NCBI GenBank assembly: GCA_037045355.1 | Contig: JBAOHO010000008.1 | Location: 105,331-169,330 of the forward strand | Direction: 5' to 3' | DNA length: 64,000 nt | DNA from: Candidatus Nanopelagicales bacterium | GTDB taxonomy: Bacteria > Actinomycetota > Actinomycetes > S36-B12 > GCA-2699445 | The notes under the pieces: generated by a model | The model's database searches: none | What the model was told of the DNA's origin: nothing | Seen by the model: the letters and a program-made list of their open reading frames with translations, nothing else | Translations under genes and position numbers: made by a program | Shown here: positions 1,187-8,418 of the stretch, one piece after another | Layout: every line of letters begins with the position of its first letter | Position numbering within the stretch: the first letter of the stretch is position 1

Positions 1187-3058
1187 GTGACGCAACGAAC
1201 TGATCTGCGCAATGTCGCGATCATCGCCCATGTCGACCACGGCAAGACCACCCTGGTCGACGCCATGTTGTGGCAATCGGGTGCGTTCCGAGAGAACGCG
1301 GACATCGCCGATCGTGTGATGGACTCCATGGACCTGGAGCGTGAGAAGGGCATCACGATCCTGGCCAAACAGACCGCCGTACGGTACTCGGGGCCGGGTG
1401 CGCCAGAGGGCGGACTCACCATCAACATCATCGACACTCCCGGTCACGCAGACTTCGGGGGGGAGGTCGAACGCGGACTCGAAATGGTCGACGGAGTCCT
1501 GCTTCTGGTCGACGCCTCCGAAGGCCCGTTGCCGCAGACACGATTCGTCCTGGGCAAGGCGCTGGCGAAGGGGCTCCCCGTCGTTCTCGTCATCAACAAG
1601 GTCGATCGCAGTGACGCCCGGATCGCGGCTGTGCTGGATGAGGTCTATGAGCTGTTCTTCGATCTCGAGGCCACCGAGGATCAGATCGACTTCCCCGTCA
1701 TCTACGCCAGCGCCAAGGCCGGCCGCGCATCCTTGGCGCAACCCGAGGACGGCGGAATGCCCGACGGTGAGAACTTGGAACCTCTGTTCACCACCTTGGT
1801 GCAGACCGTTCCCGCCCCCGAGTACGACGAGACCGGTCCGCTGCAGGCGCACGTCACCAACCTCGATGCGTCCCCGTATCTGGGTCGCCTGGCGGTCTGC
1901 CGAGTTCATGCAGGGGAAATCCGCAAGGGGCAGCAGGTCGCCTGGTGCCGGGCTGACGGGAGCATTGAGAACGCCAAGGTCACCGACCTCCTCATGACCC
2001 GGGCCCTCGAACGTGTCCCGGTCGACTCCGCGGCTGCCGGTGACATCATCGCGGTCGCGGGACTGCCCGACATCACCATCGGTGAGACCCTGGCCGACCC
2101 CGCCGATCCGCGCCCGCTGCCCGTCATCACGGTGGACGAGCCAAGCATCTCGGTGACGATCGGCACCAACACCGCACCCCTGGCCGGCAAGAGCGGCAAC
2201 AAGATGACGGCCCGGCTGGTGAAGAACCGATTGGACGCCGAGCTCATCGGAAATGTCTCGCTGCGGGTCCTCGAGACCGAGCGCCCCGACGCGTGGGAGG
2301 TCCAAGGCCGCGGTGAACTCCAACTCGCCGTCCTGGTCGAGATGATGCGTCGGGAAGGGTTCGAACTCACCGTGGGCAAGCCCGTCGTGGTCACGCGCGA
2401 GATCGATGGCACCCTGCACGAACCGATGGAGGAGCTCACTATCGATGTCCCCGAGGATTTCGTGGGGGTCGTCACTCAACTGCTCGGACTGCGCCGGGGT
2501 CGCATGAAGCAGATGCACAACCACGGCACCGGATGGGTTCGGCTGGAATACGCGGTTCCCGCCCGTGGGCTCATCGGCTTCCGCACGGAATTCCTCACCG
2601 AGACCCGAGGCACCGGGCTGATGCACCATGTGTTCGGCGGCTATGAGCCATGGCACGGGGAATTGCGGACCCGGCCCTCGGGCTCCTTGGTGGCGGACCG
2701 ACAAGGGACGGTCACCACGTATGCGTGCTTCGGGCTCCAGGAACGCGGCACCTTGTTCGTCGATCCGGGTGCCCAGGTCTACGAGGGCATGATCGTCGGT
2801 GAGAACGCTCGGGCCGATGACATGGATGTCAATCCCACCAAGGAGAAGAAGCTCACCAACATCCGATCCTCCACAGGGGACGAACTCGAACGACTGATCC
2901 CGGCCCGCCGCTTGTCGCTGGAACAGGCCCTCGAGTTCTGTCGTGAGGACGAGTGCGTCGAGGTCACTCCAGGCGAAGTTCGGCTGCGTAAGACCGAACT
3001 GGCGGCGACCGCCCGCGCCCGAGTTGCTGCCCGGCGCAAAGCCCGCGACTCCTCGTAG
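1187..3058 (+). CDS. typA: translational GTPase TypA/BipA
   Basis: 623-aa ORF with GTG start. Motifs: [17 protein letters not shown] (G1), [14 protein letters not shown] (G3), NKVD (G4), plus EF-G-like C-terminal domains. Confidence 0.95.
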
Positions 3059-3146
3059 TCCCCGCGACTCCTGGTAATCGGAGCGACTCCTGGTAGTCGG
3101 AGCGACGCCTCGCGAACGGAGCGACGCCTCGTGAACGGAGTAGGCC
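3042..3146. repeat. tandem repeat, about 5.5 x 19 nt, starting inside the last codons and stop codon of typA
   Basis: Units are cccgcgactcctcgtagtc, cccgcgactcctggtaatc, ggagcgactcctggtagtc, ggagcgacgcctcgcgaac, ggagcgacgcctcgtgaac, then partial ggagtagg. They are contiguous with no spacers. Confidence 0.85.
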
Positions 3147-3441
3147 CGGTCCTCGGTTCCCCTACGGCCTCCGCCGGAGGTTCCCAGCATGGCTGGCGCC
3201 CCCAAAGTGCGGGGATCGGGTGACACCGGGGCAATTCGGTTTCCCTGTCCCCCGAACGGACCTACGGTTACCGCACTTCGGTACCGATCCCTCACGGGAG
3301 CGCCAGACGAGGTCTCCAACGGAGTGAAGTCCTTCCTGGGTTTGTGGGGTGCCCCGGGATCGGGTGGCAGTTGTCCGCGCGGAGGCGCCTCAGCGAAGAA
3401 GTCGATCGGGTTACGGGCGAGAGGACACAGCAGTGCGCAGA

Positions 3442-5600
3442 ATGGGTACCGCGAAGCGGTCCATGGTCGTGGTCATGGGGGCTGCCGTGGTGGCGGCGTC
3501 GGCGGTGGTACCAGCGGCTGGCGCGACTTCAGGGGTTGCTGTGTCGTGGACGACGACCAGTGATTGGGGGACGGGGTATTGCGTCGACGCCCGCGTGACC
3601 ACCGATGCCGCGACGCCTGTGGTGTGGTCTGTTCCCATGGATCGTCCGGGAACTGTCACGTCGGTGTGGAACGCTCGGTTGAGTACCCAGGACGGCGGCA
3701 CTGTTGCCTCGGGGCAGACGTGGAACTCGTTGGTCTCGAGTGCTGCCCCGGCCTCGTTCGGATTGTGCTTGACGCGTACGGGTGCACCGTCTCCGACGTC
3801 GAGTCCGACGCCGACTCCGACGCCGACGCCGACGCCGACTCCGACTCCGACGTCGACCCCGACGCAGACCACCCCCGCGCCGACGCCCGACGCCGACTTC
3901 CGACTCCAACCCCGACCTCGACTCCGACGCCGACGGCCGCTCCGGTCGTTGCGAAGACGGAGGTCACGGCGCAGTGGAATACGGGGTACTGCGTCGACGT
4001 CACCGTGACCACCGCGACCGCGAGCCCGGTGAGTTGGTCGATTCCGTATGGCGTCAGCGGTCAACTGAACTCGTTGTGGAACGCCAAGACGGCCACCGTC
4101 AGCGGATCGTTGCGGTTTGTGGGGGAGTCGTGGAACCGCACGGTCACGGCGGCGACCCCGGCGGTCTTCGGGTACTGCGCCACGGGTAAGGCCCCGAGCC
4201 CGACACCGACACCGACACCGACCCCGACCCCGACCCCGACACCGAGCCTGACGCCCACCCCTACTCCAACCCCCACGCCTACCCCGACCAGTTCGGTGAC
4301 TTCCGCCCCACCTACGAGCTCGCCACCTACGAGCTCGCCGCCCACGAGTACGCCGACTCCGACAGCGCCGAGTGGACTCCCCACGCCCGTGTCATTCACC
4401 CCGACGAGTGCAGCGGACGGCGTGATCCACTTTCATCTCAATCTCCCCTTCGGATCGGGCAACGTCGAGCGGCTCACGCTCTCCACGAACCACACGGACC
4501 TGATCATTTCCAACTTCGTCGCAGGGGCGCTTCTCGGGCGGCTCGTCGAGGAGAAGGACCCGGAACTGCGCTTCAACAAGGACTACGTGTACGGCGCATT
4601 GTTCGCACAACTACTGCAGGAGAACATCGACACGGGCAACTACCAGCAGGGCACCAACTGGATCAACCCGGATGCCGTTGAACGGGGCAGACTGCTGTCC
4701 CCCGGCCAGGGCGGCCCCTACCAGATCAACGACTACTCCAAACGGCTGGAGACCGATGCCGGGATCGGGTTGGTCAACTTCGTCGCGCTGCAGAAGGGTC
4801 TTGGGTACTCAGTCGAGGATCAGGACTCCGGCGCCCAAACGGCGGCTGTCGGTCCCGAATCGCTTGACGACAAGTACTTCGGCCCGATGGCTGCCGCGTT
4901 CTTCCATCTCAACGACTTGAACCGACTCATCATGAACAACGCTGAGTCGTGGGGGCCACAGCATCAGTACTTCGCCACGTGCATGTCCAATCTGCGTGAT
5001 CCCCGATCCGACGAGTTCAGCTACAACAACCTCGACATGTTGCTGAATGCGGCTTACAACGCCGGGACGTACTCGCGCATCCTGAACGACTACGTCCGCA
5101 TCTGTGCCCGCCAGTTCGGTACTGGTCCGGAGTCGACCCAGGTCAAGTCCCAGGGCGATTACTCATTGTCCGATACCGCCTATCAGTCCGCGATCGGCAC
5201 CAGCGAGTCTGCCGGTTCCACGTTCATCCTTTATCCCCGCCAGGTGAGGTTGTATCTGGATCAGATCTACAACTCGCCGCACTTCCCGTCGGCCGCGATC
5301 ACCGGCGAGAACAGTGTGAGACTGTCCGCCCGCGATATCGGCTACGTCTTCGCCAACTCCATGGGAACCCTGGCCTACGTGGATGACCAGTCGAGGTATC
5401 GATACATCGACTGGTCCGACAGTGATGCGGCCTACCACGCCGCGCTCGACTCCTTGGAGCTGACCGAGGGATCAGTTCTCGACATCTCCAAGAAGGCTGA
5501 TCGCTCGCGGTTCTTCGCTCTGCTCGATGCTTCGATCGACAACGTCGCGAAGCGCTTGAACACAACATTCGGCCAGGTCACCCAAACGACGATCCGCTAG
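3442..5600 (+). pseudogene. secreted CBM2-PT-CBM2 protein with an unassigned ~400-aa C-terminal domain (lysozyme/SLT-like motifs), reading frame broken in the first PT linker
   Basis: The signal peptide plus first CBM2 ([19 protein letters not shown]...) is read in the frame of ORF 3349..4008. The second CBM2 ([14 protein letters not shown]...) and the C-terminal domain are read in the frame of ORF 3564..5600. Compared with the intact paralog at 5642, there are extra bases at 3890 (a) and 3902 (g), a net +2 shift. ATG at 3442 precedes the hydrophobic signal sequence. Confidence 0.65.
3477..4216 (+). repeat. copy A of a ~0.75-kb direct repeat (signal/CBM2-PT-CBM2 coding module)
   Basis: Block 3532-3776 is identical to 5723-5967, and block 3903-4216 is identical to 6170-6483. 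Translations agree in all three frames and in the antisense shadow ORFs. Only the PT linker length differs between copies. Confidence 0.9.
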
Positions 5601-5641
5601 CGCTGACCAGGCCACGCCACGGACCGCAGGAAGGACGAAAC

Positions 5642-7915
5642 ATGAGAACCGTGATCGCAGCAACTGTGGGGGCTGCCGTGGTGGCTGCTTCTGTGATCGT
5701 TCCGGTGGCGGGGGCTGCTGCGGGGGTTGCTGTGTCGTGGACGACGACCAGTGATTGGGGGACGGGGTATTGCGTCGACGCCCGCGTGACCACCGATGCC
5801 GCGACGCCTGTGGTGTGGTCTGTTCCCATGGATCGTCCGGGAACTGTCACGTCGGTGTGGAACGCTCGGTTGAGTACCCAGGACGGCGGCACTGTTGCCT
5901 CGGGGCAGACGTGGAACTCGTTGGTCTCGAGTGCTGCCCCGGCCTCGTTCGGATTGTGCTTGACGCGCACGAGTGCACCGTCTCCGACGCCGACTCCGAC
6001 GCCGACTCCGACGCCGACTCCGACGCCGACTCCGACGCCGTCTCCGACGCCGACTCCGACGCCGACGCCGACTCCGACTCCGACGCCGTCTCCGACGCCG
6101 ACGCCGACTCCGACTCCGACGTCGACCCCGACGCAGACCACCCCCGCGCCGACGCCCGCGCCGACTTCCACTCCAACCCCGACCTCGACTCCGACGCCGA
6201 CGGCCGCTCCGGTCGTTGCGAAGACGGAGGTCACGGCGCAGTGGAATACGGGGTACTGCGTCGACGTCACCGTGACCACCGCGACCGCGAGCCCGGTGAG
6301 TTGGTCGATTCCGTATGGCGTCAGCGGTCAACTGAACTCGTTGTGGAACGCCAAGACGGCCACCGTCAGCGGATCGTTGCGGTTTGTGGGGGAGTCGTGG
6401 AACCGCACGGTCACGGCGGCGACCCCGGCGGTCTTCGGGTACTGCGCCACGGGTAAGGCCCCGAGCCCGACACCGACACCGACCCCGACCCCGACACCGA
6501 CGCCGACCCCGAGTCCTTCGGTGACGTCTGCCCCGTCGGTGACTGCCACCCCCGCCCCGAGTGAGACGGCGAGTGCCACACCGACTGTCACACCGACACC
6601 CACACCGACACCCACACCGACACCCACGGTTTCGCCCTCTCCGACCGTCACACCGCCCCCGACGATCTCTCCGACGGCCCCTGCCGAGGGTCTGCGCCGC
6701 GTGGGGTACTTCACCGCGTGGGGCATCTATCAGCGCAACTTCTTCGTCAAGAATCTCGTCACGAGCGGGTCGGCAGCGAAGCTCACTCACATCAACTACG
6801 CATTCGGCAACATCAGTCCCTCCGGCGAGTGCTTCATCGTCAACCAGAGTGGCGAGGGTGACGCATGGGCGGATTACGCGCGGTCGTTCCCTGCCGACCA
6901 GAGCGTCGACGGCACCGGTGACACCTGGAATCAACCGTTGCGGGGCAACTTCAATCAGTTGCGCGAACTCAAGGCCCAGTACCCGCAGCTGAGGGTCCTC
7001 ATCAGTCTGGGTGGCTGGACGTGGTCGGACCGCTTCTCAGATGTGGCCCTGACACAGGCATCCCGCGAGAAGTTCGTCCGCTCCTGCGTCGACCTCTATC
7101 TGAAGGGCAATCTGCCCCTGTACGACGGAGCGGGTGGCGCGGGTTCCGCCTCCGGTGTGTTCGATGGAATCGACGTCGACTGGGAATACCCGGCGTCACC
7201 AGGGCTGGACCCGAGCGCCCATCGTCCCGAGGACTCGCGCAACTACACGTTGCTGATGCAGGAGTTCCGGCGTCAGATGGATGCGTTGTCCACCAGCACT
7301 GGCCGCCGCTACGACCTCACCGCTGCGGTGCCGTCGGATCCCGCCAAGATCGCGAAGTTCGAGATCGGTGAGGTGTCGCGGATCCTGGACTTCATCAACA
7401 TCATGGCCTACGACTTCCGCGGTGCTTGGGATGCGCAGGGTCCGACCAACTTCCACTCGAACCTGTTCCCCGACCCGTCATCGCCTGGGGGCGCGGACTT
7501 CAGGGCCTTCAGCGTGGCGACGGCCGTCGATGCCTGGCGAGCCGGAGGGGCGTCCGCCGACAAACTCGTGGTCGGAGTGCCGTTCTACGGGCGAGGCTGG
7601 ACCGGAGTCGCGGGGGGCGGAGACGGACTGTACCAGGCCGCTGGCCAGCCGGCTCCTGCCACGTATGAGGCGGGCTACGAAGACTTCAAGGTCCTCCGTT
7701 CGCTGCCGGGTTACACGTCCTACCGTCACCCGGTCACCAAACAGAGTTGGATCTTCAACGGCAACACGTTCTGGTCGTTCGACGACGCCCAGGTGCTGGC
7801 CGACAAGTCCGCCTACATCAAGGCGAATGGCCTCGGGGGCGCGATGATCTGGTCGTTGGACGGTGACAGCGCTGACGGCGCCCTCATGAGTGCTCTGGAC
7901 GCCGGTCTGGGCTGA
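5642..7915 (+). CDS. secreted GH18 chitinase with two N-terminal CBM2 domains and Pro/Thr linkers
   Basis: 757-aa ORF with AGGAAGGA Shine-Dalgarno before the ATG, a signal peptide, 2 x CBM2 (W..GY..V.V.N-type), long PT linkers, and the GH18 catalytic motif [11 protein letters not shown]. Confidence 0.92.
5668..6483 (+). repeat. copy B of the ~0.75-kb direct repeat (signal/CBM2-PT-CBM2 coding module)
   Basis: See copy A. The PT linker is expanded here (5971-6169) relative to copy A. Confidence 0.9.
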
Positions 7916-7920
7916 CCTCG

Positions 7921-8418
7921 TCACCGGTCCGACCAAGGCTTCACGGCGGCCTTGTCGCGCTCGTTCTTGGCGATCGCCAACGTCGCGTAGGCCGTGAGGG
8001 CGAAGGACATGCCCAGCAAGGTCCGGGTGCTGACCGCGAGCGTCGAGTCGAACACCATGTTGTAGGACACCAGAACGAACGGGGCGAGGGCGGCGACGAA
8101 TGAGAGCCCGTAGAACAACGCGGTGACCGGGATCCCTTCCTGCCGGTCCCGCACGACCTTGCTGACACCCAAGCAGCCGTACAAGCTGAACAGTGCGGCG
8201 GTGTAGAGGAAGTAGCGCTCACCGATTGTGATCCCCGCGGCGTACCAGACGGAGTACAGGAACGTGATCGCGCCGAGCGCGAAAGCGAACCATGACACGC
8301 CCTGCCAGGCGCCGGTGGGGGGTGGGATTGTGCCGACCCGGACCGGGGCCACGTTCGGCGGGGGGAAATCCGTTGCGGGTGTTGCGGGTACGGACTCGAC
8401 GGTGTCAGTCGTGTTCAT
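7921..8418 (-). CDS. YiaA/YiaB-family inner membrane protein
   Basis: Four predicted TM helices. SKVVRDRQEGIP and AKNERD resemble the E. coli YiaA motifs KTVRDKYEGIP and QKNIRD. The ATG at 8418 overlaps the upstream stop (ATGA). Confidence 0.65.
   Translation of the reverse strand: MNTTDTVESVPATPATDFPPPNVAPVRVGTIPPPTGAWQGVSWFAFALGAITFLYSVWYAAGITIGERYFLYTAALFSLYGCLGVSKVVRDRQEGIPVTALFYGLSFVAALAPFVLVSYNMVFDSTLAVSTRTLLGMSFALTAYATLAIAKNERDKAAVKPWSDR

Follow-up and report, generated by a model that had tools for sequence, protein, structure and literature searches.

A candidate family of secreted, chitin-active enzymes found with GH18 chitinases

We analysed a gene at positions 3442-5600 of a 64,000-nucleotide stretch of DNA from Candidatus Nanopelagicales bacterium (GenBank assembly GCA_037045355.1, contig JBAOHO010000008.1, positions 105,331 to 169,330 of the forward strand; this whole stretch is called the window below). 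The gene encodes a secreted modular protein, in which a signal peptide, a carbohydrate-binding module of family 2 (CBM2), a Pro/Thr linker, a second CBM2 module, and a Pro/Thr/Ser linker are followed by a C-terminal domain of 408 residues, which we call domain X. Domain X is a good candidate for a new family of chitin-active enzymes. In the reading that we prefer, to which we give a probability of about 0.55, the family comprises secreted, chitin-directed enzymes that use Glu83 as general acid and work together with chitinases of glycoside hydrolase family 18 (GH18).

The domain X family and its conserved residues

Domain X belongs to a rare, sharply bounded, and undescribed family, as judged from profile and homology searches. 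It gave no match in Pfam at E<=1, in NCBIfam at E<=10, or in PHROGs and the PDB sequences, and none of the 83 family members that were scanned for domains matched a catalytic Pfam family through domain X. These results bear out an earlier reading of the same DNA made from its letters (the sequence-only reading), which had described a domain of about 400 residues behind two CBM2 modules that resembled no recognised family, and the profile searches that it had proposed returned no characterised family. Its starting point for the domain, position 4390, lies in the right region; the exact start does not hold, because 4390 falls 16 nt inside the domain and one base out of frame, where codons start at 4389 and 4392.

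A word-indexed search recovered 149 homologues of domain X, with E values from about 1e-170 to 1e-50 (best 2e-173). The best of these cover the domain completely at 64-67% identity. Homologues at 54-67% identity are multidomain proteins with CBM2, CBM5/12, or CBM49 modules; those at 44-49% are single-domain proteins of Legionella, Aquicella, and uncultured Gammaproteobacteria; and the Francisella and Vibrio homologues stand at 33-36%. Nearly all are named "hypothetical" or after their carbohydrate-binding module only. Neither Pfam nor Foldseek bore out the UniRef label of an Aquicella member, "Imelysin-like domain". When 1.84 billion representatives were searched exhaustively with a HMMER profile, only 170 clusters were obtained at E<=1e-3 and 114 at E<=1e-30, and the weak tail of this search consisted of fragments, with no other families and no run into the soluble lytic transglycosylases (SLT). 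Among 185,579 species genomes (one genome per species), we found 157 loci. They include the chitinolytic genera Andreprevotia (A. chitinilytica), Amantichitinum, Silvimonas, Collimonas, Vibrio, and Shewanella; further loci lie in Parashewanella, Legionella, Francisella, Cysteiniphilum, and Victivallales, and in metagenome-assembled genomes (MAGs) of freshwater and wastewater Actinomycetota and Burkholderiales. The nearest named relatives in this species scan are Actinomycetota MAGs at about 70% identity, and contigs identical to the source occur in wastewater and other metagenomes.

Conservation was counted over 190 near-full-length homologues. The three motifs picked out by the sequence-only reading are no chance likeness, for they turned out to be the best-conserved positions of the family, and their coordinates were exact: the Glu codon (GAG) of LLQENID at 4620-4622, GGPYQIN at 4710-4730, and AAYNAG at 5049-5066. 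The domain in the window fits the family profile over its full length and has every conserved position, including those of QxxQEN, GQGGPYQxNxY, NxxYNxG, and YPxQxxxY. The Glu of LLQENID, E83, is the sole near-invariant carboxylate of the family (187/190), and it is the obvious candidate for the catalytic residue that it had been proposed to be. The next best acidic positions are D181, kept in 170/190, and D296, kept in 163/190 and replaced by Asn in 23. E83 is missing from three members. In two of these, P0080 and P0213, conserved polar positions were also lost (14/22 and 10/22, respectively), and both are probably inactive paralogues; loss of E83 together with other polar residues is expected if these residues form one functional site. 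The third member, P0090, carries E83A and is otherwise intact.

The structure predicted by AlphaFold2 from an 83-sequence alignment is confident (mean predicted local distance difference test, pLDDT, 97.0; predicted template-modelling score, pTM, 0.96) and has no match among solved structures. About 17 helices make up the model, together with a beta-hairpin at the N-terminus and an alpha/beta part at the C-terminus. A Foldseek search of the full model against the PDB gave no match at E<=0.001, the best being an unrelated dGTPase at E 0.29, and nothing significant was found in BFVD. The sole glycosidases in the Foldseek list were two GH124 entries, 2xqo_A (E 3.9, TM 0.33) and 6g1g_A (E 4.7, TM 0.35), aligned over about 225 columns. 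A separate core model of residues 36-250 (pLDDT 93.8) matched nothing in the PDB, with MltE at E 7.1 and TM 0.17.

Links to chitin and competing explanations

Domain X recurs with chitin-directed modules. Among the 83 scanned members, to which the counts of binding modules and catalytic families refer, CBM5/12 is found in 22, CBM2 in 3, CBM49 in 3, and fn3 in 6. Domain X and GH18 share one polypeptide in at least four architectures: a 2850-residue protein with CBM2, two GH18 domains, and domain X (P0165); a 2680-residue protein with an S8 protease, GH18, and domain X (P0166); ChiA_N, domain X, and GH18 (P0195); and CBM2, GH18, and domain X (P0212). In a neighbour screen with a GH18 profile built from domain envelopes only, a GH18 domain was present within 8 kb in 11/83 loci, and it was fused or directly adjacent every time; in V. 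ostreicida, for example, the domain X gene begins 146 nt after a ChiC-type GH18 gene. These fusions with CBM2, CBM5/12, and GH18, the adjacency to GH18 genes, and the occurrence in chitinolytic genera point to chitin as the likely substrate, in keeping with the suggestion of the sequence-only reading. Giant secreted multi-enzyme proteins (P0165, P0166; loci L023, L025, L031, L063) come mainly from Victivallales/Lentisphaerae and Bacillota MAGs; in them, domain X is accompanied by one or two GH18 domains, by an S8 protease and CBM2, and by numerous repeats of the Big_9 or cadherin-like type.

The placement of domain X is typical of a catalytic module. In 189 proteins it stands alone (54), C-terminally (47), N-terminally (38), or internally (50); of the 97 proteins that are extended N-terminally, 40 have a Pro/Thr/Ser-rich linker in front of it; and 148/179 members have a hydrophobic N-terminus, likely a signal peptide in most. 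Independence of position, linkers, and hydrophobic N-termini together indicate that domain X behaves like the catalytic module of a carbohydrate-active enzyme (CAZyme). This comparative evidence favours the catalytic over the structural kind of domain, as had been suggested.

On the preferred reading, the pair of CBM2 modules would anchor the protein to crystalline chitin, and a glycan chain would be held by domain X in a site whose walls carry the conserved Gln, Asn, and Tyr residues. Glu83, positioned at the C-terminal end of its helix, would serve as general acid in the cleavage of a beta-1,4 bond, complementing the GH18 enzyme. What the data show directly is how the protein is built, where the family ends, which residues it keeps, its company of GH18 and binding modules, and a confident model without structural match; that domain X is catalytic, that it acts on chitin, and that E83 is the catalytic residue are inferred. 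Lytic transglycosylases and GH124 typically have one conserved carboxylate only. The presence of one near-invariant carboxylate in domain X would suggest a chemistry like that of single-acid enzymes (GH23, lytic transglycosylases, GH124) or substrate-assisted catalysis, and unlike that of a classical two-carboxylate hydrolase. We advance more tentatively the stronger proposal that domain X founds a CAZy family of its own, whose fold is still absent from the PDB and which cleaves chitin with a single carboxylate, Glu83, alongside GH18. The route could be non-classical, by base-less inverting hydrolysis or by lytic-transglycosylase-like chemistry on chitin, and such a family would have been conserved over a range that takes in actinobacteria of freshwater and wastewater as well as the secretomes of Francisella and Legionella.

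Several observations weigh against the enzyme and chitin parts of the preferred reading. No structural or profile similarity of domain X to a known glycosidase was found, so that the case for an enzyme comes from conservation and context only, and the 190 homologues share no second conserved carboxylate that could serve as base or nucleophile. About 87% of the 83 loci are without a nearby GH18 gene, and the contexts in Francisella, one actinobacterial contig, and one proteobacterial contig are not chitin clusters. About 29% of members are without any carbohydrate-binding module, and CBM2 and CBM49 also bind cellulose. We found no paper that characterises the family. Finally, the placing of two published proteins, CbpA and IGB42_00302, in the family (see below) goes by names, a pseudogene pattern, and domain architecture.

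The strongest competitor, although we hold it to be doubtful, places domain X in the lysozyme superfamily, as a heavily embellished GH23/SLT-like or GH19-like form that cleaves chitin or peptidoglycan through the single acid E83; large insertions would then hide the lysozyme core from sequence and Foldseek searches. This is a special case that is compatible with the preferred reading. It is also what the sequence-only reading had favoured, in taking an atypical branch of GH23 to be plausible, and none of the tests run backed that suggestion, which is left with the shared AYNxG motif. The colinear order of SLT-like motifs speaks for it: E83 at a helix end, GxGxxQ[IL] about 30 residues on, and AAYNAG at a helix end, which hhalign paired with AAYNxG of SLT. 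However, E83 is followed by Asn and not Ser, GGPYQ comes 30-34 residues on, where GLMQ of SLT domains comes about 15 residues on, and the spacings are roughly twice as long as in Slt70 (E to Q, 34 versus 18 residues; E to AYNAG, 144 versus 73). Neither PF01464 nor PF00182 matched any of the 83 members at E<=10. Our SLT profile was built from the domains of Slt70, EmtA, MltC, MltD, and MltF of E. coli K-12 (effective number of sequences, Neff, 2.6); since a search meant to enrich it returned hardly anything but EmtA orthologues of enterobacteria, these five E. coli paralogues are the basis of the SLT comparison. Against the five domains, hhalign with default settings gave probabilities of 0.2-0.7% and aligned AAYNAG alone, and 14 of 100 column shuffles scored as high. 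With relaxed gap penalties, the stretch from AAYNAG to YPRQIRxYL was paired with SLT ETRxYV at a score of 28.6, compared to 17.1 +/- 3.6 in 38 shuffles, none of which reached it; the gap parameters had been tuned beforehand, and we take this alignment as suggestive. The ES...GLMQ half of the SLT profile located E83...Q117 no better than it did in reversed sequences.

Similar results were obtained for GH19. The comparison used ten GH19 sequences from phage and Salmonella records, with a barley chitinase sequence serving as bait only, and hhalign gave a probability of 0.7% with other regions aligned, a value that stands for the observed score alone. Two GH19-like motifs occur in domain X, at 4596-4640 (LF[GA]QLLQEN, compared to F[LI]AQxxHES) and at 4701-4736 (GQGGPYQIN, compared to GRGPIQ[LI]T). 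Since profile comparison gives homology no support, the resemblance may be convergence or chance. In a calibration, the same thin GH23 and GH19 profiles scored just 1.3% against each other, so that the profile negatives say little about a relationship at the superfamily level, and this favours an embellished lysozyme, as do the single conserved carboxylate and the fact that GH124 entries were the only CAZyme matches in Foldseek. By contrast, no lysozyme-type structure rose above noise in Foldseek, though hundreds are present in the PDB and BFVD, and the structure prediction and Foldseek search that the sequence-only reading had proposed recovered no lysozyme-like fold superposable on GH23. The Foldseek negatives outweigh the profile negatives, yet for a core into which about 110 residues are inserted they do not decide the matter.

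A second alternative, which we judge unlikely, is that domain X is not an enzyme but an accessory module that binds chitin or other glycans. It might then be an adhesin, disrupt the substrate, present chains, or assist colonisation, as do the "chitin-binding proteins" of pathogens. The Francisella members are named merely "chitin-binding protein", the second catalytic carboxylate is missing, there is no likeness to any known hydrolase fold, and single-domain members occur outside chitin gene clusters in the intracellular or amoeba-associated Legionella, Aquicella, and Francisella. Yet a domain of 400 residues with about 25 near-invariant polar residues, including the Glu found in 187/190, is more constrained than typical binding modules, it is joined through long linkers to dedicated binding modules as catalytic modules are, and loss of E83 coincides with decay of other conserved positions.

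Least probable in our view is a catalytic domain X that acts on something other than chitin (peptidoglycan in bacteriolysis, chitosan, cellulose, or a protein or glycoprotein matrix that embeds chitin), for which the cellulose binding of CBM2 and CBM49, the S8 protease among the fusion partners, and a Legionella member near a CE4 deacetylase and an AlgX/MBOAT pair can be cited. Chitinolytic secretomes also hold CBM5/12-tagged proteases and other accessory enzymes (PMC8802321), but the recurrent partner of domain X is GH18, in the four fusion architectures and in adjacent genes, CBM5/12 is the commonest appended module, and no protease-type motif (His/Ser/Cys triad or metal ligands) is conserved, the sole conserved His being H21 (178/190). 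The Legionella member is a single-domain protein of L. maceachernii (locus L097, 3699-9846) whose neighbours are the CE4-type polysaccharide deacetylase (PF01522) and the AlgX/MBOAT O-acetylation pair; this context looks less like a chitin catabolic cluster, and hints that the protein helps to modify an acetylated polysaccharide.

Should domain X prove to be a chitin-directed enzyme, its fusion to GH18 and chitin-binding modules would add a step or specificity so far unknown to bacterial chitin breakdown, which is currently credited to GH18, GH19, some GH23 and GH48 enzymes, and AA10 lytic polysaccharide monooxygenases. Chitin breakdown is among the largest carbon and nitrogen fluxes in water and soil, and a new enzyme could be put to use in chitin valorisation. 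Secreted proteins of Francisella (probably CbpA), Legionella, Vibrio, and Collimonas that are now called hypothetical or "chitin-binding" would also acquire a function open to testing. With a confident model and no PDB neighbour, domain X is a clean target for structure determination; if it were instead a hidden branch of the lysozyme superfamily, the known limits of divergence of the lysozyme fold would be extended.

Gene structure, frameshift, and the neighbouring chitinase gene

In the window, the coding sequence is split between two overlapping frames on the + strand. The open reading frame (ORF) at 3349-4008 encodes the signal peptide, a CBM2 module, and a Pro/Thr linker, and the ORF at 3564-5600 (678 residues) encodes the second CBM2 module, the Pro/Thr/Ser linker, and the 408-residue C-terminal region, which opens with GLPTPVSFTP and ends at a TAG stop (5598-5600). 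Two extra bases, A3890 and G3902, which lie 12 nt apart in a CCGAC-type repeat of the first linker, break the frame; both are missing from the paralogous linker of the downstream GH18 gene. An independent metagenome contig (L090; ENA ERZ27239181) is 99.9% identical to window positions 2827-5784 (2,958 nt) and differs by one single-nucleotide polymorphism and two indels, in which exactly A3890 and G3902 are missing. In L090, the signal peptide, the two CBM2 modules, and the linkers thus lie in one unbroken frame of 756 codons, which gives 718 residues from the Met equivalent to window position 3442. PF00553 matches two stretches of this intact protein, residues 33-122 best. The frameshift, which the sequence-only reading had implied by speaking of a frame-repaired construct, is therefore real in the window, and is probably an assembly or polishing error in the repeat, though it could be a strain variant; whichever origin it has, L090 establishes that an intact allele exists. 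GTG at 3433 is an in-frame alternative to the ATG start. Coordinates of all features are collected in Table 1.

Table 1. Features of the domain X gene and its downstream neighbour (positions in the window; residue numbers are those of domain X; conservation over 190 homologues)
Feature	Position	Strand	Basis	Conservation or remarks
Probable ATG start and Sec-type signal peptide	3442..3525	+	Read from sequence; same frame runs to the stop in L090:616-2769	
CBM2 module 1	3538..3807	+	PF00553; frame of ORF 3349-4008	
Pro/Thr linker 1	3808..3953	+	Alignments with paralogous linker and L090	Frameshift (extra A3890, extra G3902)
CBM2 module 2	3954..4211	+	PF00553, E 4.9e-9, residues 131-216 of the 678-aa ORF 3564-5600	
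Pro/Thr/Ser linker 2	4212..4373	+	Translation	
Domain X, 408 aa, candidate catalytic module	4374..5597	+	No family-library match; AlphaFold2 model	
N-terminal part of domain X				H21 178/190, N47 185/190, G51 190/190
Motif Q79-L-L-Q-E83-N84 (Q-x-x-Q-E-N)	4608..4625	+	E83 at C-terminal end of helix 75-83	Q79 184/190, Q82 188/190, E83 187/190
Motif G111-Q-G-G-P-Y-Q117-I-N119-D-Y121 (G-Q-G-G-P-Y-Q-x-N-x-Y)	4704..4736	+	Non-helical segment	G113 188/190, G114 190/190, P115 190/190, Y116 183/190, Q117 187/190, N119 186/190, Y121 184/190
Middle of domain X				N135 188/190, Q155 182/190, P161 189/190
Motif N225-A-A-Y228-N229-A-G231 (N-x-x-Y-N-x-G)	5046..5066	+	End of helix 220-230	N225 183/190, Y228 188/190, N229 188/190, G231 190/190
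Motif Y287-P-R-Q290-V-R-L-Y294-L-D296 (Y-P-x-Q-x-x-x-Y)	5232..5261	+	Helix 283-299	Y287 189/190, Q290 187/190, Y294 184/190
Spacer of 41 nt	5601..5641	+	Sequence	GGAAGGA 6 nt before next ATG
Partner gene: signal peptide, CBM2, Pro/Thr linker, CBM2, Pro/Thr linker, GH18 chitinase, 757 aa	5642..7915	+	PF00704, E 7.4e-80; PF00553 twice	
Terminator-like hairpin directly after GH18 stop	7946..7958	+	Single consensus match, weak	Sole one in 3000-8300

The gene that follows encodes a GH18 chitinase containing DGIDVDWE. A scan of 3000-8300 found no terminator-like site between the two genes, and this result and the short spacer indicate that they are probably co-transcribed. Their 5' parts align over ~770 near-identical nt, which comprise the end of the signal peptide, the first CBM2 module, the linker (75 nt shorter in the domain X gene), and the second CBM2 module; the DNA of the first CBM2 module is near-identical in the two genes, and positions 3903-4202 are 100% identical to 6170-6469. 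The presence of a near-identical targeting cassette in adjacent genes points to recent duplication or gene conversion. Over 3476-4249 and 5667-6517, the DNA is about 97-100% identical, while the catalytic modules are unrelated, and the duplicated region is a break point in most other public contigs of the same species. Upstream, at 1187-3058, lies a gene that we take, from its sequence alone, to encode a TypA/BipA-like GTPase. The 64-kb window contains no tRNA genes (ARAGORN) and no Rfam families at gathering score.

Comparison with known systems

The closest known enzymes include those of the GH23/SLT group (PF01464; Slt70, MltE/EmtA, MltC, MltD, MltF of E. coli, and GH23 chitinases). Like domain X, they have a single conserved Glu that stands last in a helix and no conserved second carboxylate, AAYNxG at a helix end, and a Gly-rich ...Q[IL] segment between the Glu and AAYNxG; both are mostly alpha-helical, and a polymer of N-acetylglucosamine is a plausible substrate for each. 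GH23/SLT domains differ in having about 170 residues, compared to the 408 of domain X, in which the motif spacings are about twice as long, in the Ser that follows their Glu where domain X has Asn, and in showing no significant profile or fold similarity to it. A beta-hairpin at the N-terminus and an alpha/beta region at the C-terminus are further additions in domain X. For GH19 chitinases and endolysins (PF00182), chitin as the substrate class fits the context of domain X, and there are the two local motif resemblances; in contrast to the one near-invariant carboxylate of domain X, GH19 enzymes use two catalytic Glu residues, and Foldseek matched domain X to no GH19 structure. GH124, whose fold is related to that of GH23, is all-alpha, and one catalytic acid has been identified in it. 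The GH124 cellulase CtCel124 (2xqo, 6g1g) reached noise-level Foldseek scores, was not recovered with the core model, and has no sequence similarity to domain X.

Two published proteins probably or possibly belong to the family. The F. novicida member has 555 residues, consists of domain X and CBM5/12, and is named "chitin-binding protein". The Francisella proteins compared (P0128-P0141) include the intact form of 555 residues in F. novicida and F. hispaniensis, and fragments only (181 and 338-361 residues) in F. tularensis type A and B. The cbpA gene (FTN1485/FTT1577) encodes a protein secreted by a type IV pilus or type II-like system (PMC4688374; bioRxiv 10.64898/2026.05.11.724269), and in strains of types A and B, FTT1577 is recorded as either disrupted or missing (PMC2682660). 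Because the F. novicida member shares with CbpA both the name "chitin-binding protein" and the fragmentation in type A and B strains, it is probably CbpA (FTN_1485), for which secretion is the sole biochemical function reported in PMC4688374 and PMC2682660. The second protein, IGB42_00302 of Andreprevotia ripae, is secreted and was detected mainly on chitin. Apart from two CBM5/12 modules nothing in it was recognised, and most of its homologues come from chitinolytic bacteria (PMC8802321). The family member of A. chitinilytica is built in exactly this way, from which we infer that IGB42_00302 also belongs to the family. Nothing in the Jeongeupia paper could be assigned to domain X proteins.

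A further close comparison lies within the window itself. In the neighbouring chitinase, a GH18 module with no similarity to domain X occupies the place that domain X holds in the other gene. Both proteins are built on the same scaffold of signal peptide, CBM2, Pro/Thr linker, CBM2, and Pro/Thr linker, and both genes belong to the same probable transcription unit.

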